Source: Candidatus Shapirobacteria bacterium (GTDB taxonomy: Bacteria > Patescibacteriota > Microgenomatia > UBA12405). Taken from it: 64,000 nt of DNA. Shown one piece after another: positions 1,474-56,965 of the stretch (position 1 is its first letter; each line of letters begins with the position of its first letter). The position numbers and the translations under genes were made by a program. Location of the stretch: positions 13 to 64,012 of the forward strand of contig JACPHO010000002.1 of NCBI GenBank assembly GCA_016188545.1, in the 5' to 3' direction. Below the pieces are notes generated by a model. That model searched no databases. It saw only the letters and a list, made by a program, of their open reading frames with translations, and had not been told where the DNA came from.

Positions 1474-1734
1474 TTGGTTGTGTTCTACTACACATATGTA
1501 TTGGAAAGCCTGAAAGATAATAGTTTGTATATTGGCTATACTTCTGATTTAAAGAAAAGATTCAAAAGACATAACTTAGGATTAAATAAAGCAACAAAAC
1601 CACATATTCCTTACAGACTAATTCATTTTGAAGGATTCTTGAATCGAGTTGACGCAAAAAGTCGTGAAGTTTATTTAAAATCAGGGTGGGGACTAAAGAG
1701 TGTTCATAAAATGTTGGAGAAATATTTTATATGA
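1474..1734 (+). CDS. GIY-YIG nuclease domain protein (YhbQ-like)
   Basis: N-terminal YTYVLES...LYIGYTSDLKKRFKRHN plus ...REVYLK matches the GIY-YIG signature. 86 aa. Confidence 0.7.
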   Translation: MVVFYYTYVLESLKDNSLYIGYTSDLKKRFKRHNLGLNKATKPHIPYRLIHFEGFLNRVDAKSREVYLKSGWGLKSVHKMLEKYFI

Positions 1735-7329: not shown

Positions 7330-9063
7330 ATGAAAGTTGTGCGACAGTTCTTACATTTCCTAAAAGACTACAAGCTATCGATGGTCATGTTTATGACGGT
7401 CACTACTTTGTCGGTGCTGGCAGAGTCGATGAGACCATGGTCGCTGAAAATGATCCTCGATAGTGTAGGTGTTAATGATATGAATAGGGTGTACTGGTAC
7501 CTTGGACTTTTGGGGGTATCGACTATCGGGGGAAACATAATTAATTCTCTGGGGTACTTCTACGGTGACGTAGTTAAGATTCCCCTATCAAAACAGATTA
7601 GAGAAGTAGTGTTCAAAAAAGTTCTCGACCTGGATTTTGCTTACCATGTTGATAAAAATACCGGCTCGCTCATTAGCGCATTTCGGCGGGGGGATGGAGC
7701 GGTGAATTCGATATTTGATGCGGTGTTTCAGGAAATTTATTGGACGATTATATACATTGGGGTGGCACTGTGGTTTTTGTTCCAAGCCTCCCCTTCGATT
7801 GGAATGGCACTGGTGGGATTGTTTGCTATCAACATGAGCATGATTTTTTGGCTTATAAAAAAGAATCTAAAGACAAGGGTGGTGTTCAATAAAACAGAAG
7901 ATGAGATTTCGGGGATTATCGCCGATACAATGATCAACTACGACACAGTTAAGTTTTTTGCCGCCGAAAAAAGAGAAGAGAAAAGATTGGCCAACAAGTT
8001 TTCAGAGTGGACGAGAGCAGTATGGGACTATGCCAACACCTTTAGGATGATGGATGTGGGGGTAGGGACGGTATCGGCTAGTGGAATGCTACTGATGCTA
8101 TGGATAGCTGTATCAAAACTCAACAACGGGCTAACTATTGGGGATATTGTGATGATCTCTGGATTTGTGACCAGTTTGCATTTTCAATTCTTCCACTTGT
8201 TTTCACAAATTAGAAATATTGCCAAACATACCGCGGACCTGGAGGCTTATTTTGGAATTCTAGATAACGAAGTGTGTGTCAAGGAAGCCACAAGGCCAAG
8301 AAAAATTAAAAAAATGGCAGGGAAAATTGAATTTCAAAAAGTCGGATTTGTCTATCCAAAAAACAATCAGAAAGTATTGGATGATATTAACTTAGTAATA
8401 AAGTCGGGAACCAAGGTAGCGTTTGTAGGTCGGTCGGGTACCGGGAAAACAACTTTGGTTAAACTGCTTCTACGATTTTACGACCCCAGCAAGGGACGGA
8501 TATTGATCGATGGGGTGGATATTAAAAAAATGACTAAGAGCAACCTGCGGTCGATTATCTCGGTAGTGCCACAAGAACCGGTACTGTTTAATAACTCCAT
8601 CAAATTTAACCTGGCTTACGGCAAGGAAGAAGCCACCATGGAAGAGATATTGACTGTGGCGGAACAGGCCAACATCATTGATTTTATTGACAAGCTCCCC
8701 AAAGGCTGGGATACGATGGTGGGAGAACGGGGAATAAAGCTTAGCGGTGGACAGAAGCAGAGGTTAGCAATTGCCCGAGCCCTACTTACCAACCCTAAAG
8801 TTTTGATCTTTGACGAGGCAACTTCGAACCTCGACTCAGAATCGGAGAGGATGATCCAGACGGCCCTTGAGGAAGTGTCAAAAAGTCGGACAGTAATTAT
8901 TGTGGCGCATAGGTTCTCAACAGTTCGCGATGCAGATAATATTGTGGTACTGGCGGGGGGAACGATAGTCGAAAGTGGGAAGCACCAAGAACTACTGGCC
9001 AAAAAGGGCGTCTACGAAAAGCTGTGGTCGATTCAAACGAAGGGGAAGAGCAAGAAGAAATAA
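7330..9063 (+). CDS. ABC exporter, fused permease/ATPase (MsbA-like)
   Basis: N-terminal 6-TM domain. C-terminal NBD with GRSGTGKTT and LSGGQKQRLAIARAL...IFDEATSNLD. Confidence 0.85.
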   Translation: MKVVRQFLHFLKDYKLSMVMFMTVTTLSVLAESMRPWSLKMILDSVGVNDMNRVYWYLGLLGVSTIGGNIINSLGYFYGDVVKIPLSKQIREVVFKKVLDLDFAYHVDKNTGSLISAFRRGDGAVNSIFDAVFQEIYWTIIYIGVALWFLFQASPSIGMALVGLFAINMSMIFWLIKKNLKTRVVFNKTEDEISGIIADTMINYDTVKFFAAEKREEKRLANKFSEWTRAVWDYANTFRMMDVGVGTVSASGMLLMLWIAVSKLNNGLTIGDIVMISGFVTSLHFQFFHLFSQIRNIAKHTADLEAYFGILDNEVCVKEATRPRKIKKMAGKIEFQKVGFVYPKNNQKVLDDINLVIKSGTKVAFVGRSGTGKTTLVKLLLRFYDPSKGRILIDGVDIKKMTKSNLRSIISVVPQEPVLFNNSIKFNLAYGKEEATMEEILTVAEQANIIDFIDKLPKGWDTMVGERGIKLSGGQKQRLAIARALLTNPKVLIFDEATSNLDSESERMIQTALEEVSKSRTVIIVAHRFSTVRDADNIVVLAGGTIVESGKHQELLAKKGVYEKLWSIQTKGKSKKK

Positions 9064-9098
9064 TTCTTAATACGTAAACAGTAATTGGTAAATTGAGA

Positions 9099-9917
9099 CT
9101 ATGATTTTGATTTTAGATAATTTTTTGGAGATATAACCTTTGTCCCAGATTCTGATTCCAGTTTTACCCTAGCTTGACGAGCGATTTGACCACCTCGATG
9201 ACCAGCGCTGATATTTTCCGGCATTCCAGTGGCGTCAAAAGATTGGGCAATGGTTCGCGTGGAGGCTTCAGCTAAGGCAGTAAAAATTAGTTCTAATTCC
9301 GACATGTGATCACGAAGATTTTGATTTTTTAAGCCTTTAAGTTCTTTATGATTTCTAATGGTCATATCGGACCATTCCTGATGAATAATGTTGGTTAATA
9401 TGGCAAATTCCTGTTCTTTGGTTACCTCATGATTTTTCCAGTAATCGGTCAATTTATTTCGAGTCTCTTGGCCCATCATTCGTTGTTGAATCCATTTGTC
9501 ACTCCGGCCTAACTTTTGCCAGTGACTTCGGGCACGATTAACTGCCTTTTCCGGATCGCCAATTTCTTCGATTCGCTCATAACCGACTTTGGCTAACCAG
9601 CGTTTGAAGGGTTCAGCTTTGGGTGAGGGAATGGATTGGATAATTCTAAATAAACCTTCGATATTGGCACAGTCTGTTTCTCGTTTTTTGCCATCATTAG
9701 CAACTAATTTTAACCGGTGACAATTTGTCACCACTTCACTCCCTTCATCTCTAAGTCTCTGAACCAATTTATTCCAATATTTCCTTGGATCCTCACTATC
9801 TGTCAATACACCAACAACGCCAACTACCGAAAACCACCATTTATCCTTAAACCATATACGGCGAATTTCTTTTTGGTGGAAATTTATTGGTTTTGAGTTA
9901 TTTATTACTTGATTCAT
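9099..9917 (-). CDS. BRO-N (KilA-N-like) domain protein
   Basis: INFHQKEIRRIWFKDKWWFSVVGV...EGLFRII.S..PKAEPFKRWLAKV matches the Bro-N/antirepressor N-domain pattern. The long ORF (to 10139) reads through tRNA-Arg, so it is trimmed to the Met at 9917. Confidence 0.55.
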   Translation of the reverse strand: MNQVINNSKPINFHQKEIRRIWFKDKWWFSVVGVVGVLTDSEDPRKYWNKLVQRLRDEGSEVVTNCHRLKLVANDGKKRETDCANIEGLFRIIQSIPSPKAEPFKRWLAKVGYERIEEIGDPEKAVNRARSHWQKLGRSDKWIQQRMMGQETRNKLTDYWKNHEVTKEQEFAILTNIIHQEWSDMTIRNHKELKGLKNQNLRDHMSELELIFTALAEASTRTIAQSFDATGMPENISAGHRGGQIARQARVKLESESGTKVISPKNYLKSKS

Positions 9918-9985
9918 AGTAAAGAATATACCCGAATAAAACCCAAAGTCAAGATTTATAGTAATTGTGAGGTAAAATTGGACAA

Positions 9986-10057
9986 GTTCCTGTAGTCCAA
10001 TGGATAAGATGATCCCCTCCGAAGGGATTGATCCGGGTTCGACTCCCGGCGGGAACA
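9986..10057 (+). tRNA. tRNA-Arg (anticodon CCG)
   Basis: Acceptor GUUCCUG/CGGGAAC. Anticodon stem AUCCC/GGGAU with loop CUCCGAA. T-arm CCGGG-UUCGACU-CCCGG. Confidence 0.8.
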
Positions 10058-10119
10058 CAGACAAATAAGAAAAGAATTCAGGCACAATATCGTTTGAAGC
10101 TAGTAAGCTATAATAAGAG

Positions 10120-10602
10120 GTGGACCAGGAAACAAACATAACTGATAATTTGTACTACGACGAGCGATCGGCGGGAGGTATCGTGTACAAAAAGGAAGGA
10201 GAAAAAGTATTATTCCTCCTAATCAAAACTTTTGCCAACAAACGAAGGAAGACAGTCTTTAAGTTCCCCAAAGGACATCTGAATAAAGATGAAGTACTAA
10301 AGCAAGCGGCATTACGTGAGGTGGAAGAAGAAGGAAGGATTAAGAGTAAAATAATCACTAAGATAGGCTCAAATGATTATATTATCTGGGACAAATTACA
10401 GAAGAAAAAGATTATCAAGAAAGTGACTTTCTTTTTGATGGAGTATGTCGAGGAAAGCAACCTAAAGTATTTTGACTCGGAAGTGGTCTTGGATCGGATC
10501 TGGGTGAACTACAGCGATGCTCTAGGCAAGCTGGCTTTTGACTCGGAGAAGATACTACTGAAAAAAGCTAAGGTGAGGTTGGACTGGTTGAGTAAGAAAT
10601 AA
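10120..10602 (+). CDS. NUDIX hydrolase
   Basis: Nudix box GHLNKDEVLKQAALREVEEEGRI (Gx5Ex7REUxEExGU). Confidence 0.75.
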   Translation: MDQETNITDNLYYDERSAGGIVYKKEGEKVLFLLIKTFANKRRKTVFKFPKGHLNKDEVLKQAALREVEEEGRIKSKIITKIGSNDYIIWDKLQKKKIIKKVTFFLMEYVEESNLKYFDSEVVLDRIWVNYSDALGKLAFDSEKILLKKAKVRLDWLSKK

Positions 10603-10663: not shown

Positions 10664-10730
10664 CCTCCTTCGCTTTGCTACGGCGGATAAACCCACCTTC
10701 GCGAAGACAACGCTTCGGCGGGTAAATCGG
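10664..10730. repeat. tandem pair of CC(N)CC...CGGCGG hairpin repeats (family also at 47005, 56886 and 60836)
   Basis: cctccttcgctttgctacggcgg followed by cccaccttcgcgaagacaacgcttcggcgggtaaatcgg. The gcgggtaaatcgg tail is identical to that at 47023-47037. Confidence 0.6.
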
Positions 10731-10786: not shown

Positions 10787-10873
10787 GGAGAGGTCGGATA
10801 GTGGTTCATTCCACAGACCTGGAAAGTCTGCGCCGTAAAAAGCTCGCGGGTTCGAATCCCGCCCTCTCCGCCA
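10787..10873 (+). tRNA. tRNA-Ser (anticodon GGA), CCA encoded
   Basis: Acceptor GGAGAGG/CCUCUCC. Anticodon stem CAGAC/GUCUG with loop CUGGAAA. Long variable arm. T-arm GCGGG-UUCGAAU-CCCGC. 3' GCCA. Confidence 0.8.
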
Positions 10874-11059
10874 ATTTTCAGTTGTTCCCTACAGTTCCAT
10901 GTAATATAGGGAATGCAGCTCTCCAAACCAATAATTCGTTTGTTCCTGTTTAGCTTTTTTACCCGTAGGACGTTTTTTTAGAAATACACGTCTGACTGGT
11001 TAAAATATACCCGTAGGACGTGTATTGACAAATCTACGTCCAACGGGCATAATAGTTTT

Positions 11060-12028
11060 ATGAAGGTATTTTTGTCAAACCAGGGAAACTTAAGAAACTT
11101 TAAGAGTTTTACAGAATCCATAGACTTATCTCATCCAGATAAATTGGAAATAACAACTCACGATAAATGGGTAACAGTTCATCCAGCAAATCTGGTTTTG
11201 GCAGCTGCGTTAGCGATGAAAGTTGGCAAGGATAATACAGAAATTACAGGTAAAGTTCCTGAAACCGGACGATATTTAGACAGAATGGGACTTTATGAGT
11301 TAACTAAGACATCTTCGCCGTTTATATATAGGAAAAAGGAAGAGGCGGGAAGGTTTTTGCCGATTAAAGTGATAAAAGACTCTCAGGGTCAATCTCGTTT
11401 TATTACGGACATGGTACCTCTACTACATCTATCCGAAAAAAATGCCACAGTAGTGAAATATATTATTGGAGAGCTAGTTAGAAATGTTCTTGAACATTCT
11501 TTTGCGGATGATGGGGCAATTGTGGCCGCTCAATACTATAAAAAGACCAACCGGGTGAGTATAGGTATTTGTGACACAGGTATAGGTATCTGGAAGAGTA
11601 TGTGGAAATATTGGAGACCAAAAACTGACATTGATGCAATAAAATTAGCTTTGACTCCGGGAATTACTGGTACTACGCGAAGGGAAGGTGGTACATCCGA
11701 AAATGCAGGGGCTGGATTATTTTTTATAAAATCAATTGCAAAAATATCGCGTAACTATTTTGTAGTTTATAGTGGAAGTGCAGAATATACATTATTAAAA
11801 CATGACAAAAGAGTAAAGAATAAACCCAGGCTTTATGCTGATCCGAACCGAGATCCCCACAGTGAAACAAATACCTCTTCTGATTTTCAAGGTACTTTGG
11901 TAGCAGTAGATATTTCATTGGATGAGACTCCGGAATTTAATGATTTGTTAGCAAGTATTGGCGAGGTATACCACCAAGCAATTCGTGAACGTAAAAAAGA
12001 GAAATATAGAAAGCCAAAGTTTATATGA
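11060..12028 (+). CDS. GHKL-type (histidine-kinase-like) ATPase domain protein
   Basis: N-box ELVRNVLEHS, G1 box DTGIGI and G2 box GAGLFFIKS. There is no HisKA/DHp domain and no TM segment. Confidence 0.6.
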   Translation: MKVFLSNQGNLRNFKSFTESIDLSHPDKLEITTHDKWVTVHPANLVLAAALAMKVGKDNTEITGKVPETGRYLDRMGLYELTKTSSPFIYRKKEEAGRFLPIKVIKDSQGQSRFITDMVPLLHLSEKNATVVKYIIGELVRNVLEHSFADDGAIVAAQYYKKTNRVSIGICDTGIGIWKSMWKYWRPKTDIDAIKLALTPGITGTTRREGGTSENAGAGLFFIKSIAKISRNYFVVYSGSAEYTLLKHDKRVKNKPRLYADPNRDPHSETNTSSDFQGTLVAVDISLDETPEFNDLLASIGEVYHQAIRERKKEKYRKPKFI

Positions 12029-12336
12029 AAAAAATCATTAAAATACTAAAACAAACCGGTGACTTTGCTGAAAACAAAGATGTGGCAAAGGACTTAAGAT
12101 TGAAAAAAATTATGCCGGCTCTATTAAAGAGTAATGGAGTTATTTTGGACTTCAAGGGTGTTAATGGTGCAACACAATCTTTTATTCACGCCTTAATTAG
12201 TGATCCAATTCGTGAATTAAAAGACAGGGCTTTCGATAATCTGTCTTACAAAAACACAAATGATGCTATTCGTGAGATTATTTCCATTGTTTATCGTTAT
12301 ATGCAGGAAAGTTTAGATGGAAATGACGATAAATAA
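12025..12336 (+). CDS. STAS-like (DUF4325-like) small protein, translationally coupled to the GHKL ATPase
   Basis: 103 aa. ILDFKGVNGATQSFIHALI resembles the STAS-like DUF4325 core. Its start overlaps the upstream stop (ATGA). Confidence 0.5.
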   Translation: MKKIIKILKQTGDFAENKDVAKDLRLKKIMPALLKSNGVILDFKGVNGATQSFIHALISDPIRELKDRAFDNLSYKNTNDAIREIISIVYRYMQESLDGNDDK

Positions 12337-12338
12337 AA

Positions 12339-12390
12339 AAATAGGTTCTAACCGCATCAGTGGTTCACCACCAATTTAGAAAAGCGAGTA
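12339..12390. repeat. degenerate copy of the 'ataggttct...atggttcgccgc' intergenic repeat (full copies at 17691 and 18422)
   Basis: aaataggttctaaccgcatcagtggttcaccaccaat versus aataggttctggctgcgcact...atcaatggttcgccgctcaat. In each case a TATAAT box follows ~20-40 nt downstream. Confidence 0.45.
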
Positions 12391-12437
12391 AATCCTGCAA
12401 AAGTCATCGCAATTAGTTTCGAGAGTATAATGTTGAT

Positions 12438-13289
12438 GTGGAATATAAAATAAGACAGGCAACGAGAGAGGAATTGGACATTGCCGTAGGATGGGCTGCA
12501 AAAGAAGGGTGGAATCCGGGACTTGGAGACGCGGAGGTGTTCTGGAAAACAGATCCAGAAGGATTTGTAGCACTGGAAGTGGATGGAGAGATGGTGGGGA
12601 GCGGATCAATTGTGTCATATGGTGGGAAGTTTGGTTTTATGGGATTTTTTATCGTAAAGCCTGAATTCAGAGGTAAAGGTTGGGGGACAAAATTGTGGCA
12701 CTGGAGGCGAGATAAACTGTTGAGTCGATTGAATAAAGGAGCACCAATAGGAATGGATGGAGTTTTTGCTATGCAACCTTTTTATGCCAAAGGCGGCTTT
12801 GTATTGGCTCACCGAGATATGAGAATGGAGGGGGTGGGTAAAATAATGCAATTTAGCGAAAACGTTAAAGCAATTGAGGTTGATGATTTGGATGAAATAA
12901 GCAGCCTTGATGTCAAGTTTTTCGGGTATGAGAGAAGAACCTTTTTGCAAGGCTGGCTATTGATGAATAACAGCCAGGCTTTGAAATATGTTGATGGTGG
13001 GGAGATTAAAGGATATGGAGTAGTAAGAAAATGCCAAACAGGCTATAAGATTGGACCACTATTTGCTGATAATTATGAGGTAGCTGATGAGCTGTTTAGG
13101 GCTATGTCAACTTTTGCTGATGGTGAGCCGATTTATTTGGATGTCCCAGAGATAAATATTGATGGCATGAAACTGGCTAAAAACTACAATATGAAAGAGT
13201 GCTTTGGGTGTGCGCGGATGTATTACAGTCAAGCCCCGGCGTTACCGTACGACAAGATATTTGGGGTAACATCATTTGAGTTGGGCTAG
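12438..13289 (+). CDS. GNAT family N-acetyltransferase with a C-terminal accessory domain
   Basis: The acetyl-CoA binding region (FFIVKPEFRGKGWGTKLW) matches the GNAT Q/RxxGxG/A motif. Confidence 0.7.
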   Translation: MEYKIRQATREELDIAVGWAAKEGWNPGLGDAEVFWKTDPEGFVALEVDGEMVGSGSIVSYGGKFGFMGFFIVKPEFRGKGWGTKLWHWRRDKLLSRLNKGAPIGMDGVFAMQPFYAKGGFVLAHRDMRMEGVGKIMQFSENVKAIEVDDLDEISSLDVKFFGYERRTFLQGWLLMNNSQALKYVDGGEIKGYGVVRKCQTGYKIGPLFADNYEVADELFRAMSTFADGEPIYLDVPEINIDGMKLAKNYNMKECFGCARMYYSQAPALPYDKIFGVTSFELG

Positions 13290-13338
13290 ATCAAAGAATG
13301 CCCAAAAAGTAAACCTCAAATCGGATCAGTTCAGAAAA

Positions 13339-15570
13339 CTATAAATATTTTCCTGTCCACGATCTATCGCATTTTTTAATATCTTGGACTGTCCCCTGTG
13401 CCACTATCTCTCCGCCTTTGTCGCCACCTTCTAGCCCCATATCAATTATCCAATCGGCTTTTTTAATTACCTCTAAATTGTGCTCGATAACAAGTACAGT
13501 ATTGCCACTATCCACCAGTTTGTTTAACAATCTCATTAATTTCTCGACATCGGCAAAATGAAGGCCTGAGGTTGGTTCGTCCAAAATATAAAATTCACCT
13601 TTGTTTTGGAGTCGACTAGCCAACTTTAGTCTCTGACCTTCCCCTCCTGACAAAGTGTCCAGAGTCTGACCAAGTTCCAGATAATCTAGGCCAACATCTA
13701 GAAGCATTTTTAGGCCATCATTTATCGACTTTTGATTAAATAAATCACATGCTTCTATGGCGGTTATATCTAATATTTGGTCAATACTTTTGCTTTCAAA
13801 TTTATAATTCAAGACTTCTGGTTTATACCTTTTGCCATTACATTTATCGCACTTCATTTTGACATCTCCCAAAAAGTTCATATCCATTTCGATGAACCCC
13901 AAACCCTTACACTTGGGGCAACAGCCAGACTTGCTATTGAAACTAAATAGTGATGGGTTAACCTTGTTCTCACGGGCAAACAAATTCCTGACCTCATCAA
14001 ATATTCCCACATACGTAGCAATACATCCCCGCCGATTGTTGCCGATACTATTTTGGCCGACTAAGACTACTTTGTCTTGATGTTGAGCGACAATTTCCTC
14101 GACCAGAGAACTCTTGCCGGCACCTGACACACCAGTCAGGGCCACTAACAATCCTTTTGGGATGTCGACACTTATATTCTTTAAATTATTTCTATTGGTG
14201 GATTCGATTTTTAATAAGCCAGTGGGCTTTCTTGATTGTCTTATTGAGGTTTCTCCATTTGTCTGTCGATTCAAATACTTTGCTGTCAGCGACTTGTCAC
14301 TTTTTAACATTTCATCTTTTGTTCCGGCAAACACTATCTCTCCACCTTTCTGGCCACCACCGGGGCCAACCTCAACAATGTAGTCCGCCGCTCGGATTAC
14401 ACTTTCATCATGTTCGACAACTAAAACGCTATTGCCACTATCTCTCAATCTTTTTAAGTTGCCAACCACAAGTTCTAAATCTCTGGGGTGTAATCCAACT
14501 GTGGGCTCGTCCATGACATAAATCGTCTCTATCAAGTCACAGCCTAATTGTCGGGCTAATTTGACTCGCTGGGCTTCCCCTCCTGACAGAGTGTTGGTTG
14601 AGCGGTTGAGCGACAAATAACCGATACCAGCGTCGACTAAAAACTTTAGTTGTTCTAGTAATCTTGGCTTAATCACAATAGCATTTCGGTGGTCAATGCC
14701 TTTAATAAAATCCAAAGCTTCAGTTATGGGCATATTGGCTACTTGGCCAATATTTTTATTATTTATCAACACGGCTAGCGAATCTTTTTTGAGTCTCCAC
14801 CCCTGACACATCGGACAATCAACATAATTAAAATATTTCATTTCCTCTTCATTAACATGGCGACTAACGCTTGAACCGCGATTATTTAGATGAGTCACTA
14901 TTCCTTGATACATGGGCATGACTACCCCGTCATCATTATTGTTGGCTCTCTGCTTGGGGGCGGACATTAGCTTCTCAAATTCTTCGGGAGTATAGTCTCT
15001 GACCTTTTTATCCATGTCGAAAAAACCGGTCGACTTGATGATCTTCCAATACATCGATTTTACCCGCCAATTACTATACAAAATTGCCCCTTCATTAAGA
15101 CTTTTATTCACATCTATCAGCTTACTGGTATCTATGTCCATGGCTCTACCCAAACCCTTGCACTTGGGACAGGCACCAAGAGGATGGTTGAAAGAATAAT
15201 AGGACGAGTCAAATATCGGCCGACCAGCACGAGAATAGAGAAGACGAAGATAAGTGTAGGTTTCGGTAATGGTACCAACTGTTGACCGCTGGCTTTGATG
15301 CATTCTGTCTTGACTGATAATCACAGTTGATGAGATACCTTTTAAATCTTGCACGTCAGGACGGTTACTTTTTTGAAGATAGCGACGGGCCTGACTACTT
15401 AAACTTTCAAAGTACTGGCGCTGACCCTCGCGGGCAATGACATCAAAAGCAATGGTGGACTTACCACTCCCAGACACGCCAACAAAACAGACAACTTTGT
15501 TGCGTGGTATGGCTAAATCTATATTCTTAAGATTATTCTCTTTGGCGCCTTTGATGACGATGTTATCCAT
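13339..15570 (-). CDS. UvrA-like ABC ATPase (short UvrA paralogue, class II/drug-resistance type)
   Basis: 743 aa with two ABC modules (GVSGSGKST and GVSGAGKSS; signatures LSGGE.QR). Zn-finger CxxC pairs are present. It is shorter than canonical UvrA (~940 aa). Confidence 0.85.
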   Translation of the reverse strand: MDNIVIKGAKENNLKNIDLAIPRNKVVCFVGVSGSGKSTIAFDVIAREGQRQYFESLSSQARRYLQKSNRPDVQDLKGISSTVIISQDRMHQSQRSTVGTITETYTYLRLLYSRAGRPIFDSSYYSFNHPLGACPKCKGLGRAMDIDTSKLIDVNKSLNEGAILYSNWRVKSMYWKIIKSTGFFDMDKKVRDYTPEEFEKLMSAPKQRANNNDDGVVMPMYQGIVTHLNNRGSSVSRHVNEEEMKYFNYVDCPMCQGWRLKKDSLAVLINNKNIGQVANMPITEALDFIKGIDHRNAIVIKPRLLEQLKFLVDAGIGYLSLNRSTNTLSGGEAQRVKLARQLGCDLIETIYVMDEPTVGLHPRDLELVVGNLKRLRDSGNSVLVVEHDESVIRAADYIVEVGPGGGQKGGEIVFAGTKDEMLKSDKSLTAKYLNRQTNGETSIRQSRKPTGLLKIESTNRNNLKNISVDIPKGLLVALTGVSGAGKSSLVEEIVAQHQDKVVLVGQNSIGNNRRGCIATYVGIFDEVRNLFARENKVNPSLFSFNSKSGCCPKCKGLGFIEMDMNFLGDVKMKCDKCNGKRYKPEVLNYKFESKSIDQILDITAIEACDLFNQKSINDGLKMLLDVGLDYLELGQTLDTLSGGEGQRLKLASRLQNKGEFYILDEPTSGLHFADVEKLMRLLNKLVDSGNTVLVIEHNLEVIKKADWIIDMGLEGGDKGGEIVAQGTVQDIKKCDRSWTGKYL

Positions 15571-15614
15571 AGGTGTGATATAATAACCTATTACGTTACG
15601 TTATAGTCAATAAG

Positions 15615-16400
15615 ATGAATAACTACATCACTGCAGGAGAATTAGCCAAGCTCGCTGGCACCACCAAAAGAACTATTCTCTGGTATGACCAACTAGGAAT
15701 CCTTATGCCAGTAGAAGTGTCAACTGAGGGTTATCGTTACTACTCCGAGGCTCAGGTTTTGGAATATCAAATGATCCTTTTATTGACCACACTGGGAGTT
15801 ACCCTAAAGGAGATAAAAGATAAAAATGATTTGAGAAGTTTGTTTGAGGAGAAAAAAGCATCAATTAAATCTCAGATTGATAATCTTCAATTTGGGCTTA
15901 AGAACTTAGAAAAATTTATGCACAACCTCGACCAAAACAAAACTTTAATAAAGCCGGAAATTAAAGTATTAAAGCCGTTTGATGTTTATTATATTGAGAA
16001 GATAGGTTCTTACGTTGGCATTGGAAAGTACTGCCAAGAATTGGCGGGGATGTTTATCAACAAAGGTAAAGAATTTATCACCTTGGCTATCTTCGAGAAT
16101 CCTACATATCAACCCAAGAAGTCGTTGATAAAAATCTCTGTCATGGCTCGATCTGATATGGTTATTGATCCTAAATTTAAAGACTCAATTAAAAAGATTG
16201 AGTACAATCCCGGCAAAGTAATCACTTATACCCATAACGGAGCCGGGGAGCTGTTGTCTTTATTTTGGAAGGAACTCGAGAAATACTGTCGATTGAACAA
16301 AATAGAAGTTCGACATGAGTTACCGGATTTTGAAATATATCGGAAAGTTAATAGTGACCCACGAAAGCAATTCTTTGAAATCTATTTGCCGATTAAATAG
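15615..16400 (+). CDS. MerR-family transcriptional regulator with a GyrI-like effector-binding domain
   Basis: N-terminal MerR HTH (ELAKLAGTTKRTILWYDQLGIL), a coiled-coil linker and a C-terminal GyrI-like domain (BmrR/TipA-type architecture). Confidence 0.7.
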   Translation: MNNYITAGELAKLAGTTKRTILWYDQLGILMPVEVSTEGYRYYSEAQVLEYQMILLLTTLGVTLKEIKDKNDLRSLFEEKKASIKSQIDNLQFGLKNLEKFMHNLDQNKTLIKPEIKVLKPFDVYYIEKIGSYVGIGKYCQELAGMFINKGKEFITLAIFENPTYQPKKSLIKISVMARSDMVIDPKFKDSIKKIEYNPGKVITYTHNGAGELLSLFWKELEKYCRLNKIEVRHELPDFEIYRKVNSDPRKQFFEIYLPIK

Positions 16401-16402
16401 GA

Positions 16403-17689
16403 TTGGCATTGATGGTATATTTTGCCTGCTTTCTGATACAATTTGTTGTGATTTTGGGCAAACATGATCCTGTAAAAGTTTATTCGGCAATTCGATTTGC
16501 CTCGGCATTATTATTCTCGGTAATAGTTACTGTCAACTTGGTGTATCAAGCGACAGTAGTAGGATTAAATCCCCTACAACTGGTATTGGTAGGTACAGTG
16601 TTGGAAACCGTATCGTTTTTGTTTGAAGTGCCAACTGGGATTGTGGCTGACGTTTATAGTAGAAAGTTATCGGTGATTATTGGATTGTTATTGATTGGTT
16701 TGGGGTTTACTGTTGAGGGCCTGTTTCCATCATTTGCAGCCATCCTGGTTGCCCAAGTGATTTGGGGAATTGGGTTTACATTTGTATCAGGTGCACGAGA
16801 AGCATGGATTGCTGACGAGATAGGAGAAGATAAGGCAGGGAAAGCATTTTCAAAAGGTTCTCAGATGAGCCTGGTTGGGTCATTTATTGGAATAGCTATT
16901 AGTATGGCCTTAGCCAACATCAATATTCGACTGCCAATAATTCTTGGTGGGGTGCTTTATAGTTGCCAGTCAATATATTTGTGGCTATTTATGCCTGAGA
17001 ACAACTTTCACCCGACACCAATTGGGAAACGAGAGACTTTTGGAGTAATGAAAGAAACCCTAACTAATGGAATAAAACTAATAAAAGCTAGCCCTGTCTT
17101 ATTAACAATAATCTTAGCTGGTTTAATTTTTGGAATATTCTCAGAAGGGTTTGATAGATTGTGGACACCGTTTATGATTAATAATTTTTCATTTCCGGAG
17201 ATTTGGAATTTGAAACCGGTGATTTGGTTTGGAATTTTGGCAATGATTGCCAACGCCTTGGCAATAGTAGCGGTGAGACTTGCGGAGAAGAAAACAGACA
17301 CCAATAACCACAAGTCGACGGTAACAACTTTGTTAATTGTTAATGGAATTTTGGCGATAGTGGTAATGATCTTTGGTCTATCGGGGAATTTTGTGATGGC
17401 GGCAGTGGCTTATTGGATGGTGTCGATGTTTAGAGAAGCGCGAGGTCCAATCTATGATGCATGGACAAATCAGAATCTAGAACCAAAAGTTAGGGCGACT
17501 GTTTTCTCGATGTGCAGTCAGGCCAATGCTGTAGGACAGATTGTTGGCGGGCCCCTGTTGGGATTTATCGCAACCGCCGTATCACTGAGATTTAGTTTTG
17601 TTTTGGCTGGAATGTTTTTGATTCCATCGTTACTTCTGTATACAAATTCCATTAAAAATCACAAAATGGTTGAACCAGTGATTGTATAA
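16403..17689 (+). CDS. MFS transporter
   Basis: 12 predicted TM segments and an MFS-like loop motif after TM2. Confidence 0.7.
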   Translation: MALMVYFACFLIQFVVILGKHDPVKVYSAIRFASALLFSVIVTVNLVYQATVVGLNPLQLVLVGTVLETVSFLFEVPTGIVADVYSRKLSVIIGLLLIGLGFTVEGLFPSFAAILVAQVIWGIGFTFVSGAREAWIADEIGEDKAGKAFSKGSQMSLVGSFIGIAISMALANINIRLPIILGGVLYSCQSIYLWLFMPENNFHPTPIGKRETFGVMKETLTNGIKLIKASPVLLTIILAGLIFGIFSEGFDRLWTPFMINNFSFPEIWNLKPVIWFGILAMIANALAIVAVRLAEKKTDTNNHKSTVTTLLIVNGILAIVVMIFGLSGNFVMAAVAYWMVSMFREARGPIYDAWTNQNLEPKVRATVFSMCSQANAVGQIVGGPLLGFIATAVSLRFSFVLAGMFLIPSLLLYTNSIKNHKMVEPVIV

Positions 17690-17701
17690 AATAGGTTCTG
17701 G

Positions 17702-17758
17702 CTGCGCACTTCGACAAGCCAACATAAATCAATGGTTCGCCGCTCAATATTGTGACAA
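17702..17758 (+). repeat. 57 bp direct repeat, copy 1 (identical to 18431-18487)
   Basis: ctgcgcacttcgacaagccaacataaatcaatggttcgccgctcaatattgtgacaa, an exact match to copy 2. A TATAAT box follows 3 nt later. Confidence 0.9.
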
Positions 17759-17773
17759 GGTATAATTAGCCAG

Positions 17774-18430
17774 ATGCAAACGGTTAAGTTTGAAATTAAT
17801 CCGGAAAAAGAATACGAATATCACCAGCTTTTTTGTAACACCCGTGGTTTTGAAGGTATGTCCATTTTTTCTTTTACTCCAATCAAAAATAAAACTAAAA
17901 TCACAAAGAAGATTATTGATTTCTGGGATGATGACGATAAAGAACTAACCAAGAAAATTGAAAGCGAATGGAAGTTAATAGAGAAAGGTTGTTTTAAGCT
18001 GTTTGAAGATATTACCGAAACTTCTTGGCTGTATAAAACCTACCATGCCTACTTTTTGGCTTTTAGTCCAATAATTGGTTTTAGTAATCCATTTAATTTA
18101 AGGAGTCAGGAAATAGCATTAACCACTGGGGCAATTATTAACCCCAAGTTTTTAATAGGACATGAGTTATTTCACAGCCACTATTACTACGTGGTCGACA
18201 AAATGAAGATGACGGCGAGATTAAACAGAACTATTTTTACCGAAGGAGTAGCCGCATTGGCATTATTTGAGACAAAAGCCAAGAATTTATTTCCAGAGAC
18301 AGACACAGAAAGTAGTATAAGTTCATATCCGGAAGTACGGGCTAATTGGTCGATATTTTTAGATTATTGGCGCAAAAGACTTAGTTTTGAAGATTTTTTA
18401 ATGAAGATTGCTCAAGATAGTAGGTTCTAA
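17774..18430 (+). CDS. hypothetical protein with an HExxH motif (putative metal-dependent hydrolase)
   Basis: 218 aa carrying IGHELFHSHYYY. The gene is bracketed by perfect 57 bp direct repeats. Confidence 0.4.
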   Translation: MQTVKFEINPEKEYEYHQLFCNTRGFEGMSIFSFTPIKNKTKITKKIIDFWDDDDKELTKKIESEWKLIEKGCFKLFEDITETSWLYKTYHAYFLAFSPIIGFSNPFNLRSQEIALTTGAIINPKFLIGHELFHSHYYYVVDKMKMTARLNRTIFTEGVAALALFETKAKNLFPETDTESSISSYPEVRANWSIFLDYWRKRLSFEDFLMKIAQDSRF

Positions 18431-18487
18431 CTGCGCACTTCGACAAGCCAACATAAATCAATGGTTCGCCGCTCAATATTGTGACAA
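18431..18487 (+). repeat. 57 bp direct repeat, copy 2
   Basis: Exact duplicate of 17702-17758. It again follows ...taggttcta and is followed by gtataat. Confidence 0.9.
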
Positions 18488-18514
18488 TAGAAAGTTGTCG
18501 TATAATTTGCCTTA

Positions 18515-19234
18515 TCAAAGGTGAAAATAAATGGTATCAAAAAACATAACGCATTGCGTGATAATTAGACGATATGATTCAAAACTCATCTGGGGTAATC
18601 CTGTCGCCCTAATTGCCTTTCTGAATCCTGCAGATATGAGTCTTTGTTTCTCGTCCTCGGTAAAGTGCTGATCTGAATGATCGGCCTTATTTCTCAAGAT
18701 GCTTAAGCCATCTTTAAAAAAATTTCTACTATCGGTTTTGAATTTACTTTTTAGTCCTGGGGTATTATTAAGTACGGTGTCTAAGTAGTCGTTAAACGTT
18801 ATGTGATTTGCCCCTAATTTTAATATTTTATTAATCTCCTTTTTGAAGATCACTGCGTCAGGTAATTTTTGGGATATCTCCCCAACAACTATTTCCGCTT
18901 TATTCTTGGTGTTTATAACAGGAAAATGTTTTTTCTTAATGATTTCTCTTAGTTCGCATTCAACTGAAATCTGTATCTCATTTAAAAAAACTTTGTGCAT
19001 AACCACTTGTAGATCTTGAAACACATCTTCGTTAGCTGGTATTAGATATGAGTGTTTCCCGTCAAGATATAGACAGGTGGTGGCCATCATTATGGTTGAG
19101 ATATTAATGGCGGTAAGTAGTTCGGGGTAGACCGGGTTTTTCTTTTCGATAACCCATGACAATTTTTGCAGATCTGAAATTTCCGACTTAAGTTTGAGAT
19201 TATAACTGGCTAAATCTGCTTTAGTAAAATTCAT
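18515..19234 (-). CDS. HEPN-like / abortive-infection (Abi)-like protein
   Basis: 239 aa, predicted alpha-helical, no TM. The C-terminal SILRNKADHS fits the HEPN Rx4-6H motif. Confidence 0.4.
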   Translation of the reverse strand: MNFTKADLASYNLKLKSEISDLQKLSWVIEKKNPVYPELLTAINISTIMMATTCLYLDGKHSYLIPANEDVFQDLQVVMHKVFLNEIQISVECELREIIKKKHFPVINTKNKAEIVVGEISQKLPDAVIFKKEINKILKLGANHITFNDYLDTVLNNTPGLKSKFKTDSRNFFKDGLSILRNKADHSDQHFTEDEKQRLISAGFRKAIRATGLPQMSFESYRLIITQCVMFFDTIYFHL

Positions 19235-19464
19235 TTTGTATCGTTTGCTTGTGCTTATAACCTGGACTGCTTACTGTTGATTATAGCTACATACTTCCAC
19301 TCATCAAAAGCTTTTCTTTTGGATTACTATTAATTGGACACTATTATGCGGAGCGGTTATGTCACTTGTACAAAAGATATTGGGAAAGTAATTTTCTCTC
19401 GTCACAAAACAGACTCCAACTTTATCAATTGTTTGCCGTCAATAGTGTAGCGATATAATTAATA

Positions 19465-19611
19465 ATGGGCAAAATCAATAAAGACTGGTATGAGGCAAAC
19501 AAAATGCCAAAAAATCCAACTCAGGAGCAGAGAACGAAGTGGCACATGGAACACATCGAACACTGCCAATGCTACCCAGTGTCAGCAAAAACTACAAAAA
19601 GAGCTGGATGA
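19465..19611 (+). CDS. small ORF (48 aa) with a WHxEHxxHCxC motif, probably leaderless
   Basis: MGKINKDWYEANKMPKNPTQEQRTKWHMEHIEHCQCYP... A TATAAT box at 19454-19459 lies immediately upstream of the ATG. The ORF is below the track threshold. Confidence 0.3.
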   Translation: MGKINKDWYEANKMPKNPTQEQRTKWHMEHIEHCQCYPVSAKTTKRAG

Positions 19612-19800
19612 ATTCAAAAAATAAGAACACCCAGAAAGTAAACCTCTAGTCAGACAGTGGTCTAAAAAGAGCCCATGGTTTCTACAGTAAGTATGGATTT
19701 GAAACTAAGGCTCAAAGATTTGTAAAAAAGATTAGTCAGTAACTAATTTTTATAGTTGAGAAACACAAAGAAATATTGGGTATGATGCTAGAATTTCATA

Positions 19801-21133: not shown

Positions 21134-22480
21134 TTGGACAATTATTATCTGTCTAGTATTTTTTGGACTGCAATGAAAAAAAAGCCAAAAATAGAGTCGA
21201 TGGGAATACAAGTAATTGCCTTGCTTTTCTTGGCAAACCTGGGTGGCTCGTATTATTGGGTAAAGACACGGACTATGGCAGCGTCGTGTATAGACAGGGC
21301 TAGCATAAGTACTGACAGTCGGTGTTTGTATATACTGACGGGAAAAGTTTTTGAAATGGGAAGTCGAAAAAGTCCACACCGGGGGCATCCCTGTGGAATG
21401 GACGTAACTTCAATTCTTCCAAGTAACCATTCGGCAAAAGTTTCTAAATATTTGGATCCTAGGTATAGGGCAGATTTATGCACAGCATCAGCGGCACCGA
21501 CAAACACACCAAGACCAACCAGTATAGCAATACCAAACCCAACGAATACACCAAAACCGACTAATACCACTGCTCCACAGGCGACCAACACTCCAGTGCC
21601 AACTAATACTGCGACACCGACAAATACTCCGATACAGAACAGAACACCGACACCAAAACCGACGATTCCTGGAGCGTCAGTAACCACAGCAACCCCCATA
21701 CCGACCAATACAGCCACCCCAAAACCAACAAGTACCCCAAGGCTAACCAATACAGCAACGCCGACAAGAACGCCAACGCCCACAACAACCCAAGCGACCA
21801 TAATTCCAACAACCACTGAGGTCTTGACGGAAGCGACTCCAACCTCATCAGTTATTGCGGTAGCCGATAAATGCGCGAATACTGATTTAAATAATGACGG
21901 ACTGGTTAATTCAATTGATCGCGTTATCTGTCTTCAGAACCAAGAAACGCCAACACCACCAGAGCCGACAATTGTGCAAGAAGTGGTGACACTAGAACCC
22001 ACAATTACACAGGAGATAGTGACACCAATCCCCACTTCTGCACCTGTAATAGAACAACCACCAAGAGGAGCTTTTGCCGACTTAGGGTTTGCTGCGTGGT
22101 GGGGATTAGTCTTGACAATGGCGTCAGCAGGAACACTGGCATCAACATTACTTTTGGGAATGCTAAGGACAATGTCAACCACAATTACGGCTAATTTGTC
22201 GGCTGGAAAGTATAAGATGACCGTGACACCGACTGAAAATAATCTGGTAATTTCTCGAGGAGATATCGTTGAAAAGCTTTTCTATGTAACCCATTTTGGA
22301 GTGATAGATGACAATACATGTTGGGTAAACCTTTCGGGGAATGAAGGATTGATTCTGGGCAAACTTAACCAACCAAAAGTCACCGAGGGGTTTTATAAGG
22401 TGTCGGGATATACGGTCACTTCCGCAGCCAATCCTTATGTAGCGATTGAAAAGATTACGCCGCTTCAGAAAAACAGCTAA
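21134..22480 (+). CDS. secreted Pro/Thr-rich protein with a dockerin-like Ca-binding repeat
   Basis: Signal peptide. A long (PTNT)n low-complexity linker. DLNNDGLVNSID matches the dockerin/EF-hand-like D.N.DG.VNS.D motif. C-terminal globular domain. Confidence 0.5.
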   Translation: MDNYYLSSIFWTAMKKKPKIESMGIQVIALLFLANLGGSYYWVKTRTMAASCIDRASISTDSRCLYILTGKVFEMGSRKSPHRGHPCGMDVTSILPSNHSAKVSKYLDPRYRADLCTASAAPTNTPRPTSIAIPNPTNTPKPTNTTAPQATNTPVPTNTATPTNTPIQNRTPTPKPTIPGASVTTATPIPTNTATPKPTSTPRLTNTATPTRTPTPTTTQATIIPTTTEVLTEATPTSSVIAVADKCANTDLNNDGLVNSIDRVICLQNQETPTPPEPTIVQEVVTLEPTITQEIVTPIPTSAPVIEQPPRGAFADLGFAAWWGLVLTMASAGTLASTLLLGMLRTMSTTITANLSAGKYKMTVTPTENNLVISRGDIVEKLFYVTHFGVIDDNTCWVNLSGNEGLILGKLNQPKVTEGFYKVSGYTVTSAANPYVAIEKITPLQKNS

Positions 22481-47004: not shown

Positions 47005-47037
47005 GCCCGCCGTCGCCATGCTACGGCGGGTAAATCG
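47005..47037. repeat. CCCGCC...GGCGGG hairpin repeat with a gtaaatcgg tail
   Basis: cccgccgtcgccatgctacggcgggtaaatcgg. Related to the elements at 10664-10730, 56886-56927 and 60836-60896. Confidence 0.6.
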
Positions 47038-56885: not shown

Positions 56886-56927
56886 CCATCCTACGCTGAA
56901 GCTTCCACCTTCACTTCGCTATGGTGG
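56886..56927. repeat. tandem hairpin repeat units of the CC(N)CC...GG(N)GG family
   Basis: ccatcctacgctgaagcttccaccttcacttcgctatggtgg. Preceded at 56849-56871 by a perfect palindrome, cctgcctgccggcaggcagg. Confidence 0.5.
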
Positions 56928-56965
56928 ACAAGTCGGACTGTCAAAGCGTAATGACGTGTGAGTTT

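Follow-up and report, generated by a model that had tools for sequence, protein, structure and literature searches.

The stretch of DNA considered here (the 'window', 64,000 nucleotides of contig JACPHO010000002.1 from a Candidatus Shapirobacteria metagenome-assembled genome (MAG), assembly GCA_016188545.1) contains a pair of perfect 57-bp direct repeats that bracket a single gene for a protein with an HExxH motif; these repeats, the gene between them and the family of sites to which the repeats belong are the subject of this analysis. The 57-mer (CTGCGCACTTCGACAAGCCAACATAAATCAATGGTTCGCCGCTCAATATTGTGACAA) is found in exact copies at 17702-17758 and 18431-18487, both on the plus strand, and has no further match in the window at up to three mismatches (with none expected in shuffled sequence). 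When the preceding bases are included the repeat extends to 67 nt at 97% identity (17692-17758 versus 18421-18487), and the two copies then differ solely at the base preceding TAGG and at TTCTGG versus TTCTAA. The only open reading frame (ORF) between them, at 17774-18430, is 657 bp long and encodes the motif GHELFHSH. Boxes of the sequence TATAAT follow the two copies at 17761-17766 and 18501-18506, and a third copy of the repeat, located at 12336-12371 behind a STAS-like gene (nhmmer 38 bits, and also recovered by pattern searches), is followed by its own box about 55 nt downstream. A sequence-only reading of the window had already described the bracketing of one HExxH gene by perfect repeats, the near-identical lead-in, the degenerate third copy and a TATAAT box after each copy, and all of these were confirmed.

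The repeats form part of an array of units that begins at a tRNA gene 7 kb upstream of them. The anchor of this array consists of a tRNA-Arg(CCG) gene (9986-10058, plus strand; ARAGORN and Rfam), a NUDIX hydrolase gene (10120-10602, plus strand; Pfam PF00293, E 2.9e-13) and a tRNA-Ser(GGA) gene (10787-10873, plus strand), the 3' end of which, reading ...GGGTTCGAATCCCGCCCTCTCCGCCA, heads the array and is its proposed primary attachment site. Unit 1 (10874-12371, plus strand) contains a HATPase_c-like gene (11060-12028) and a STAS-like DUF4325 gene (12025-12336), both identified with Pfam, and closes with the third repeat copy, a 'type A' site (AAAAAATAGGTTCTAACCGCATCAGTGGTTCACCAC; 12336-12371, plus strand). 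Unit 2 (12372-17743, plus strand) is a 5.4-kb island in which Pfam identifies four genes: a GNAT acetyltransferase (12438-13289, plus), a UvrA-like ABC ATPase (13339-15570, minus), a MerR/GyrI-like regulator (15615-16400, plus) and an MFS transporter (16403-17689, plus). It ends in type A site copy 1 (17686-17743, plus strand), which overlaps the TAA stop codon of the MFS gene (17687-17689). Unit 3, the HExxH cassette itself (17744-18472, plus strand, 729 bp), comprises its own promoter (GTGACAAGG-TATAAT, with the TATAAT box lying 7 nt ahead of the ATG), the gene, and type A site copy 2 (18415-18472, plus strand), which includes the last three HExxH codons and the stop codon (AGT AGG TTC TAA, with the stop at 18428-18430). 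The first 57-bp copy (plus strand) is composed of the distal part of an A site, which terminates in CCGC at 17740-17743, and of the 15 nt with which the HExxH unit opens (TCAATATTGTGACAA), while the second (plus strand) is composed of the distal part of the HExxH unit's own A site and of the 15 nt that open the next unit.

That next unit (unit 4, 18473-19439) is a probable one. It contains a sigma-70-like promoter (TTGTGA-16-TATAAT; 18479-18506, plus strand), a 239-aa gene of unassigned function on the opposite strand (18515-19234, minus) and a probable fourth, degenerate A-like site (19404-19439, plus strand; ACAAAACAGACTCCAACTTTATCAATTGTTTGCCGT), a weak match that agrees with the consensus at 25 of 36 positions (nhmmer E ~4) and that is followed by a TATAAT box and a small ORF. 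If genuine, this site would probably make the 239-aa gene a reversed-gene unit, of which other co-oriented arrays provide examples (in the loci designated L014, where the gene is a NUDIX hydrolase, L038, L028 and L044). The window holds three or four copies of the site in 64 kb, all of them within 9 kb downstream of one tRNA.

The 57-bp repeat is a local variant of a more widely distributed site. The type A consensus, derived from 42 distinct copies, is 36 nt long (ATAAAATAGGTTCTAACTGCGTCAATGGTTCGCCGC), and its conservation ends sharply at CCGC; the window variant has in addition a 22-nt insert private to it and extends into the next promoter by 15 nt. The insert (CACTTCGACAAGCCAACATAAA) is present in both perfect copies (17707-17728 and 18436-18457), between CTGCG and TCAATGG, and is absent both from the third window copy, which is nearer to the family consensus than the two perfect ones, and from all other type A copies; a 40-mer of the insert-bearing variant (denoted 'A^') has no exact match in 185,579 species-representative genomes. 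In other genomes the HExxH orthologues (82-87% identical) are followed by TAGGTTCTAACTGCGTCAATGGTTCGCCGC. A second stereotyped site, 'type B' (GTTATAGRGATAGAAAGGTTCCAGACTCACCYNCTCCGC), is present in the same contigs and arrays as type A. With regard to the insert itself, the 12 nt that follow its first base, ACTTCGACAAGC, are identical to the start of a GIY-YIG unit in locus L005, and the insert is possibly the remnant of a gene-less mini-unit. Small GIY-YIG genes of about 85-90 aa recur as units beside A sites (L005 8715-8990, L013 3623-3883, L025 2582-2854, L053 5741-5992 and window 1474-1734).

Sites of the two types, which measure 36-40 nt, are distributed over about 45 contigs of Microgenomates-like MAGs and metagenomes. 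A scan of GTDB (one genome per species, with a 21-nt degenerate type A core) matched 12 contigs, 10 of them in AT-rich MAGs resembling the Candidate Phyla Radiation (CPR), and a metagenome scan with a 23-mer matched 33 contigs; within one contig of 949 kb, the exact 23-mer occurs once. The GTDB matches include Shapirobacteria, Woesebacteria and MAGs labelled as Gammaproteobacteria or Eubacteriales, for several of which the GC content is 26-36%. The loci with such titles ('uncultured Gammaproteobacteria' or 'Eubacteriales'; L009, L011, L014-L016 and L019) have a GC content of 28-36%, and one protein among them is 64% identical to a protein of the Shapirobacteria window. The GC content and this protein match suggest that these MAGs are CPR relatives; either their labels are wrong or the units cross phyla. 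The searchable literature yielded neither the site sequence nor an account of cassette arrays in CPR bacteria.

The sites are related to the 3' end of a tRNA gene. Type B matches the 3' end of tRNA-Ser(GGA) at 18 of 24 positions, ungapped and ending in CCCTCTCCGC (the tRNA end reading GGGTTCGAATCCCGCCCTCTCCGC(CA) and the type B end AGGTTCCAGACTCACCCTCTCCGC); from sequence comparison, type B is a pseudo-copy of that 3' end. It follows from the same match that the terminal CCGC corresponds to the acceptor end together with the discriminator G and the C that opens CCA. Neither site type retains an acceptor 5' strand, and in both the T-stem is destroyed.

The arrays in which the sites occur have a consistent polarity and a consistent starting point. 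Among the 20 loci with at least two sites, all 59 sites are co-oriented and none is inverted, an arrangement with a probability of 2^-39 if orientation were random, and the spacings between sites are mostly 230-1450 bp, or about one gene. In every one of the 16 loci where a tRNA gene is visible (ARAGORN), the A and B sites all lie 3' of the tRNA and in the same orientation. The anchor is tRNA-Ser(GGA) in 10 loci (the window included), tRNA-Ser(TGA) in two, tRNA-Ser(CGA) in one and tRNA-Asp in three. The Ser(GGA) anchors usually stand in the synteny tRNA-Arg(CCG)-NUDIX-tRNA-Ser(GGA), which is seen in the window and also ahead of the arrays in L003, L005, L028, L029, L047 and L048, and among the neighbour families NUDIX recurs most often (9-10 loci). 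The gene 5' of a site is co-oriented with it in 37 of 49 cases, the site then starting 0-20 nt past the stop codon or overlapping it; in the other 12 the gene is antisense and the orientation of the site is unchanged. These 12 cases place the action of the boundary at the level of DNA. In L014, the reversed NUDIX gene has its own reversed promoter. The cargo of the arrays is accessory or resistance-like in character (for example, GNAT, MFS, ABC-F, APH-like, cytidine deaminase and NUDIX proteins).

A comparison of the same genes in different arrays indicates how units are delimited. The type of the downstream site is constant for each gene family (A in three instances each for a 121-aa family and a deaminase family, and B in two instances each for two further families), and the upstream partner varies between A, B, a tRNA and none. 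The HExxH gene is found in six different contexts. In the window the order is UvrA-like (minus), MerR, MFS, [A^ HExxH A^], 239-aa gene (minus). In five independent assemblies (L055-L059) it is UvrA-like (minus), MerR, [A* HExxH A*'], and then an MFS gene 88% identical to that of the window. In L003, where the array starts at tRNA-Ser(GGA), it is adh_short, B, HExxH, A, 108-aa gene; in L005, behind tRNA-Ser(GGA), it is HTH_26, A, HExxH, A, GIY-YIG; in L053 it is GIY-YIG, HExxH, A, DUF1697; and in L054 it is DUF5677 (minus), B, HExxH, A, HTH. The downstream site is of type A in five of these six contexts and degenerate in the sixth (L055). The order of cassettes is also found to be swapped between L016 and L040.

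The left boundary of the HExxH unit lies exactly after CCGC in four genomes, whether the preceding site is of type A (CCGC|TCAATATTGTGACAAGG in the window and CCGC|TCAATGTCGTGACAAGG in L005) or of type B (CCGC|TCGTATGTTGACAAGG in L003 and CCGC|TCAGTATTGTGACAAGA in L054), and another unit (CCGC|CAAGATTT.AATATTCCC) follows an A site in L029 and a B site in L026. The same form of junction (...CCGC|) is seen across 89 junctions, and in 17 of these a (G/A/T)TGACA box is placed exactly 8-9 nt past CCGC, followed by TATAAT and, 6-8 nt further on, by ATG; the 17 include the genuine tRNA ends of L003 (tRNA|ACTTATTATGACATTGTATAAT) and L027 (tRNA|..AATGTCGTGACAATTAATATTGACTGTATAAT). The spacing of these promoters suggests that many units yield leaderless or near-leaderless transcripts. 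Further correspondences connect tRNA ends to both site types: the L034 junction tRNA|TGAATCCGGAGAAATCCG matches the L015 junction B|TGAATCCGAAGGAATCCG, and in the window the sequence that follows CCGCCA of tRNA-Ser(GGA), attttcagttgttccctacagttccatgtaat, resembles the cassette starts behind A sites in L049, L040 and L014 (tRNA|..ATTTTCAGTTGTTCCCTACAGTTCCATGTAAT matching the units in those loci). Because the same unit starts follow all three, a tRNA end, an A site and a B site are interchangeable as left junction partners.

The sites are therefore DNA-level boundaries of units; a site moves with the 3' end of its unit, the units are found in varied places and orders, and the arrays are anchored at tRNA 3' ends. 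We consider it probable that the 57-bp repeats are two copies of an attachment (att)-type boundary site that delimits integrase-less cassettes in a co-oriented array behind tRNA-Ser(GGA). The proposal that the sequence-only reading had favoured, of a gene cassette inserted by recombination, is supported by the six neighbourhoods of the HExxH gene and by the presence, in most of them, of the same site at its 3' end. Its description of the insertion point as a recurring promoter-proximal site holds for the recurrence, but the site is not primarily promoter-proximal: it forms the 3' end of the unit that precedes it, and the promoter is that of the next unit. Its second suggestion, the duplication of a regulatory module, is unsupported as the main explanation because one promoter module serves alike behind a genuine tRNA end and behind sites of either type. 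The possibility that the repeat is a 3' untranslated region (UTR) conserved in one multi-copy gene family is excluded, because many unrelated genes precede the site. The comparison with sibling genomes that had been recommended shows that, in a sibling lineage, the HExxH gene falls between MerR and MFS rather than after MFS.

In the mechanism that is proposed to account for these arrays, each unit would carry a promoter of its own, a single gene or a small number of genes and, at its 3' end, a 36-40-bp site that is a pseudo-copy of, or is related to, the tRNA-Ser 3' end and terminates at CCGC. A recombinase acting in trans would join the site of a free circular unit to the 3' end of the genuine tRNA gene, or else to a site that a resident unit already carries, with the crossover at or beside CCGC, so that an incoming unit would land directly behind a site and bring its own site after it. 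Repeated insertion would then build and shuffle the array, and the HExxH unit (17744-18472) would have landed behind the site that closes the MerR-MFS island. A more ambitious version of this proposal, which we regard as tentative and to which we give rather less than even confidence, is that CPR/Microgenomates bacteria possess a dedicated cassette-capture system, analogous to the integron and mechanistically unrelated to it, in which a tRNA-Ser gene serves as the primary site, double-stranded pseudo-tRNA sites (A and B) delimit promoter-bearing single-gene cassettes, and a recombinase encoded elsewhere (possibly a large serine recombinase) acts in trans to insert, excise and shuffle them at CCGC.

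Several observations weigh against such a reading. Pfam detects no recombinase in the first 34 kb of the window and none that recurs near the arrays; among 150 neighbouring ORFs (Pfam and all-against-all clustering) there is neither a recurrent Phage_integrase nor a transposase family; and a phmmer search seeded with XerD, a weak test, found no tyrosine recombinase in the whole window or in the loci. The sole recombinases among the neighbouring ORFs are two large serine recombinases, both beside tRNA-Ser genes (in L035 and L011). Neither an excised circle nor an allele with an empty site was seen; a search for the latter through the flanking 239-aa protein returned only three homologues, of which one had no DNA and one lay in an unrelated type I restriction-modification context. 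Genes resembling the MFS gene, with similar C-terminal ends, are followed on two short contigs by a canonical A site with no insert (L043, 74% identity over the last 23 residues, and L042), but the MFS orthologues in L055 and L028 (83-88% identical) have no site behind them, and it is therefore uncertain that the copy behind the window's MFS gene pre-dated the insertion of the HExxH unit. Type A also resembles the tRNA only loosely and is more remote from it than type B, with two GGTTC boxes that resemble a T-loop and a CCGC(CA) end. Finally, the copies that flank the HExxH gene share private variants, both in the window (the 22-nt insert and the 15 nt past CCGC) and in L055 (TTCTGATA), which site-specific crossover does not explain: such a crossover merely exchanges flanks, and so cannot copy a private variant into both products. 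The most likely source of the perfect identity would be a later gene conversion between copies 729 bp apart, or an integration by homologous recombination across the whole shared segment. The earlier view that perfect identity reflects a recent duplication is plausible, and the fit of gene conversion is just as good. At the L055 insertion a short 'target duplication', TATTAC(C)AAC, was also considered, and there it is ambiguous.

The two large serine recombinases provide a lead as candidate enzymes. In L035 the gene (7488-9344, plus strand) is reverse-oriented and abuts the 3' end of tRNA-Ser(GGA) (9200-9284, minus strand), and it heads a 7.8-kb element that ends in an A site; the L011 gene (4734-6056) is separated by 1.1 kb from the 3' end of tRNA-Ser(GCT). 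The L035 reading frame runs on through the antisense strand of its tRNA gene, and it holds, on the tRNA strand and about 60 nt from the tRNA end, the A-site core AGGTTCTAAC.

The absence of a recombinase linked to the arrays and the private variants common to flanking copies (in the window and L055) are what would be expected if no dedicated enzyme existed, the A and B sites being functional intergenic modules such as insulators or factor-dependent terminators, and the units being shuffled passively by RecA-dependent homologous recombination after DNA uptake, on which CPR bacteria probably rely; the 36-40-bp sites would then provide the homology, and the 57-bp identity would be the footprint of one such event. 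We regard this explanation as unlikely, for one and the same unit joins precisely at CCGC behind A, B or a genuine tRNA end, which are too dissimilar for homologous recombination; the very low copy number (as seen in the 949-kb contig) does not fit a general terminator or insulator; and the sites are confined to the 3' side of tRNA-Ser or tRNA-Asp genes. A different reading would have the sites act in RNA, as pseudo-tRNA 3' ends placed after stop codons to serve as signals for mRNA processing, stability or termination (for example, for tRNA-processing enzymes), with the array pattern representing no more than gene order. The position of the site relative to the stop codon in 37 of the 49 cases, the relationship to tRNA, and the small alterations that the third window copy shows in its GGTTCG box, by which a 4-bp stem is improved, are all compatible with such a role. 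It is nevertheless quite improbable: folding of the 57-mer, the 67-mer and the A and B consensus sequences, on both strands and as RNA and DNA, gave z values of -0.7 to +1.1, none of which is better than shuffled sequence; no match was found in Rfam; variation from copy to copy is not compensatory; the acceptor 5' strand and an intact T-stem are missing; and where the neighbouring gene is antisense the sites are still co-oriented with the tRNA.

The repeat could also, in principle, have misled the assembly, such that the chromosome would read MFS-repeat-239-aa gene and the assembler would have threaded in, as a loop, a 729-bp HExxH segment that in the sample was a separate molecule or a repeat-sharing variant. 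Logan assemblies of two other runs (SRR12113420 and SRR12113422) contain contigs that stop exactly one k-mer (31 nt) into the repeat from each side. Because contigs built at k=31 break at these boundaries, the reads of those runs enter the repeat by two paths and leave it by two, a configuration that permits either pairing, and the breaks alone do not prove the linear order MFS-repeat-HExxH-repeat. The exact HExxH protein is, moreover, not on record in a Logan-based gene-position index in which both flanking proteins are recorded in two Logan runs; this gap could reflect a contig-length filter, a one-residue variant or a presence/absence polymorphism of the unit in those samples, and for a contig of about 760 bp it is no evidence of absence. 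An artefact is very improbable in view of the length of the repeat, which at 57 bp is below that of an ordinary read, and of the HExxH orthologues that several independent assemblies place in the chromosome between flanking sites (L003 and L004; L005-L007, including a Logan contig that spans both sites; and L055-L059).

A number of other candidates were considered for the sites and rejected. A promoter UP-element or activator site does not accommodate the distance to TATAAT, which varies from 6 to 40 nt, nor the fact that the type of site follows the upstream gene rather than the downstream one. A DNA uptake sequence, a dispersed repeat of the repetitive extragenic palindromic (REP) type and a general terminator were set aside on the grounds of copy number; a classical attC, a hairpin or an RNA motif was excluded by the folding of both strands and by Rfam; and an intrinsic terminator or 3' UTR element was excluded by the lack of a stable fold, the lack of any terminator call at the sites and the 12 antisense upstream genes. 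A transposon, insertion sequence or miniature inverted-repeat transposable element (MITE) would not account for flanks that are direct repeats of 57-67 bp rather than inverted ones, with no transposase family among the neighbours. A phage or plasmid origin was rejected after no match was found in IMG/VR (for the A and B cores) or in INPHARED and PLSDB (for the 90-nt repeat region).

On the best reading, the closest known kind of system to the cassettes delimited by the A and B sites would be one in which integrative islands accumulate in tandem behind the 3' end of a tRNA or tmRNA gene, some of them being integrase-less units of the cis-mobilizable kind (CIMEs) for which the accretion model stands. 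In Dehalococcoides, tandem islands are bounded by 20-bp repeats of the ssrA 3' end, with a serine recombinase (DsiB) next to attL and with integrase-less units among them (PMC3146451). As in those ssrA genomic islands, the array runs downstream from the 3' end of a small RNA gene, its direct repeats are related to that end (clearly for type B, more loosely for type A) and some units lack integration genes; the serine recombinase of L035, reverse-oriented against its tRNA end, occupies the position of DsiB next to attL. In contrast to the 10-30 kb of the known islands, most of the units described here hold one gene, measure 0.2-1.5 kb and have a promoter of their own; they use two conserved site types of 36-40 nt, longer than the tRNA-like part and common to Shapirobacteria, Woesebacteria and other MAGs; and an integrase was not found in most arrays, including that of the window. 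The tycheposon islands of Prochlorococcus carry flexible genes at specific tRNA genes, including tRNA-Ser, and are flanked by partial tRNA copies (bioRxiv 10.1101/2020.12.28.424599). The likeness extends to the streamlined genome, the tRNA-adjacent flexible genes, the partial tRNA copies and an order in which newer arrivals push older ones further in. Unlike tycheposons, however, which have a tyrosine recombinase, replication genes and a cargo of several kb, most units here have no mobility genes and none has a detected tyrosine recombinase, and instead of plain tRNA fragments the sites have stereotyped sequences.

The arrays share with integrons (PMC1382264) their co-oriented units with one ORF each, a 3' site that often overlaps the stop codon, units in differing orders and contexts, occasional reversed genes and an accessory or resistance-like cargo. 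They differ in having no imperfect-palindrome attC (R''-L''...L'-R') and no single-strand hairpin on folding, with no inverted repeat reported at the sites, and in having no GTTRRRY/RYYYAAC cores (the TTCTAAC of type A merely resembles RYYYAAC, and the complementary GTTRRRY is absent); no intI, attI or Pc was found, the head of the array is a tRNA gene, and the units carry their own promoters. The logic of the array is thus shared and all of the defining molecular features of the integron are missing. Short conserved sites also bracket small gene modules, or sit behind stop codons, in Xer-dependent dif/pdif modules and in repeats of the REP/MITE type. In contrast, the present sites have no inverted binding arms around a 6-8-bp spacer and do not alternate in orientation, and they are not palindromic, have neither terminal inverted repeats nor short target duplications, and are present in very low copy number.

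Uncultured and with genomes of about 1 Mb, CPR bacteria acquire genes by routes that are poorly understood. The interest of the present results lies in what they indicate about the organisation of flexible genes in such bacteria, by a putative mechanism and enzyme. What sets the arrays apart from known islands is the single-gene scale, the promoter that accompanies each unit, the stereotyped sites shared between lineages and the lack of an integrase in most arrays. The results point towards a defined and recurrent hot spot, in which tRNA-Arg(CCG), NUDIX and tRNA-Ser(GGA) are followed by an array of promoter-bearing single accessory genes that include efflux pumps, acetyltransferases, ABC-F-like ATPases, NUDIX hydrolases, deaminases, small nucleases and the new HExxH protein. 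The two consensus sequences provide a handle with which to mine a flexible gene pool from metagenomes, and a substrate with which to identify the recombinase. If a dedicated cassette platform does exist, it would represent a second, independent solution to the problem solved by the integron.

The HExxH protein of the window (218 aa) is identical (100%) to HYV64_03370 of the Candidatus Shapirobacteria MAG. It has about 20 relatives among 5.8 billion clustered proteins, none of them with a Pfam domain, and no sequence match in Pfam, NCBIfam or the PDB. Residues H130, E131, H134 and E157 are invariant across 17 homologues, which gives the pattern HExxH...E. An AlphaFold2 model of the protein has a pLDDT (predicted local distance difference test) score of 93.8, and its best Foldseek neighbours are the catalytic domains of M1 and M4 peptidases, at weak scores (E 0.15-1, template modelling score ~0.3). 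On this basis the protein is predicted to be a small gluzincin-like metallopeptidase of the MA clan (M1/thermolysin-like). The C-termini of the family end in ...D(S/T/N)R(F/L)*, with the codons supplied by the site, and because these site-encoded codons are kept in homologues down to about 58% identity, the association between gene and site must be old.

Additional features of the window array and of related loci were noted. A drug-resistance-like block is conserved between window 13339-17689 and L055 616-5684, in which a 740-aa UvrA-like double ABC ATPase (short for UvrA) is divergent from a MerR/GyrI-like regulator and an MFS transporter; in the window the whole block is carried inside the array as part of the single 5.4-kb unit. 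Immediately 5' of the HATPase_c-like gene, the first after tRNA-Ser, there are two tandem 40-nt copies (10960-10999 and 11008-11047) that are 78% identical; each has an inverted repeat within it (CCCGTAGGACGT...ACGTC..ACNGG), and the arrangement is reminiscent of paired operators. A 32-nt direct repeat (AAGAAYRCCCARAAAGTAAACCTC...; 13294-13325 and 19623-19654, 81% identical) lies directly 3' of plus-strand stop codons, those of the GNAT gene and of a small ORF at ~19465-19625, and may represent an additional type of junction element, the third, within this array.

In the surroundings of the array, an ORF with a Bro-N domain (window 9099-10139, minus strand) has a listed 5' part that overlaps tRNA-Arg(CCG), so its true start is probably further downstream; Bro-N homologues recur near the arrays in L044 and L051. 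An ORF of 448 aa at 21134-22480 (plus strand) has a long Pro/Thr-rich tract of low complexity (PTNTP... repeats) and probably encodes a surface protein. In L003 the array ends at a long, structured-looking leader (9043-9263) before an S-adenosylmethionine (SAM) synthetase gene, which may represent a candidate SAM riboswitch. A GC-rich hairpin module (...CTTCGGCGGATAAATCCGCC...) is found in intergenic positions, sometimes immediately behind an A site, at window 10664-10691, 47007-47034 and 56905-56932 and also in L025, L031 and L044, and is probably the real type of intrinsic terminator in these genomes.

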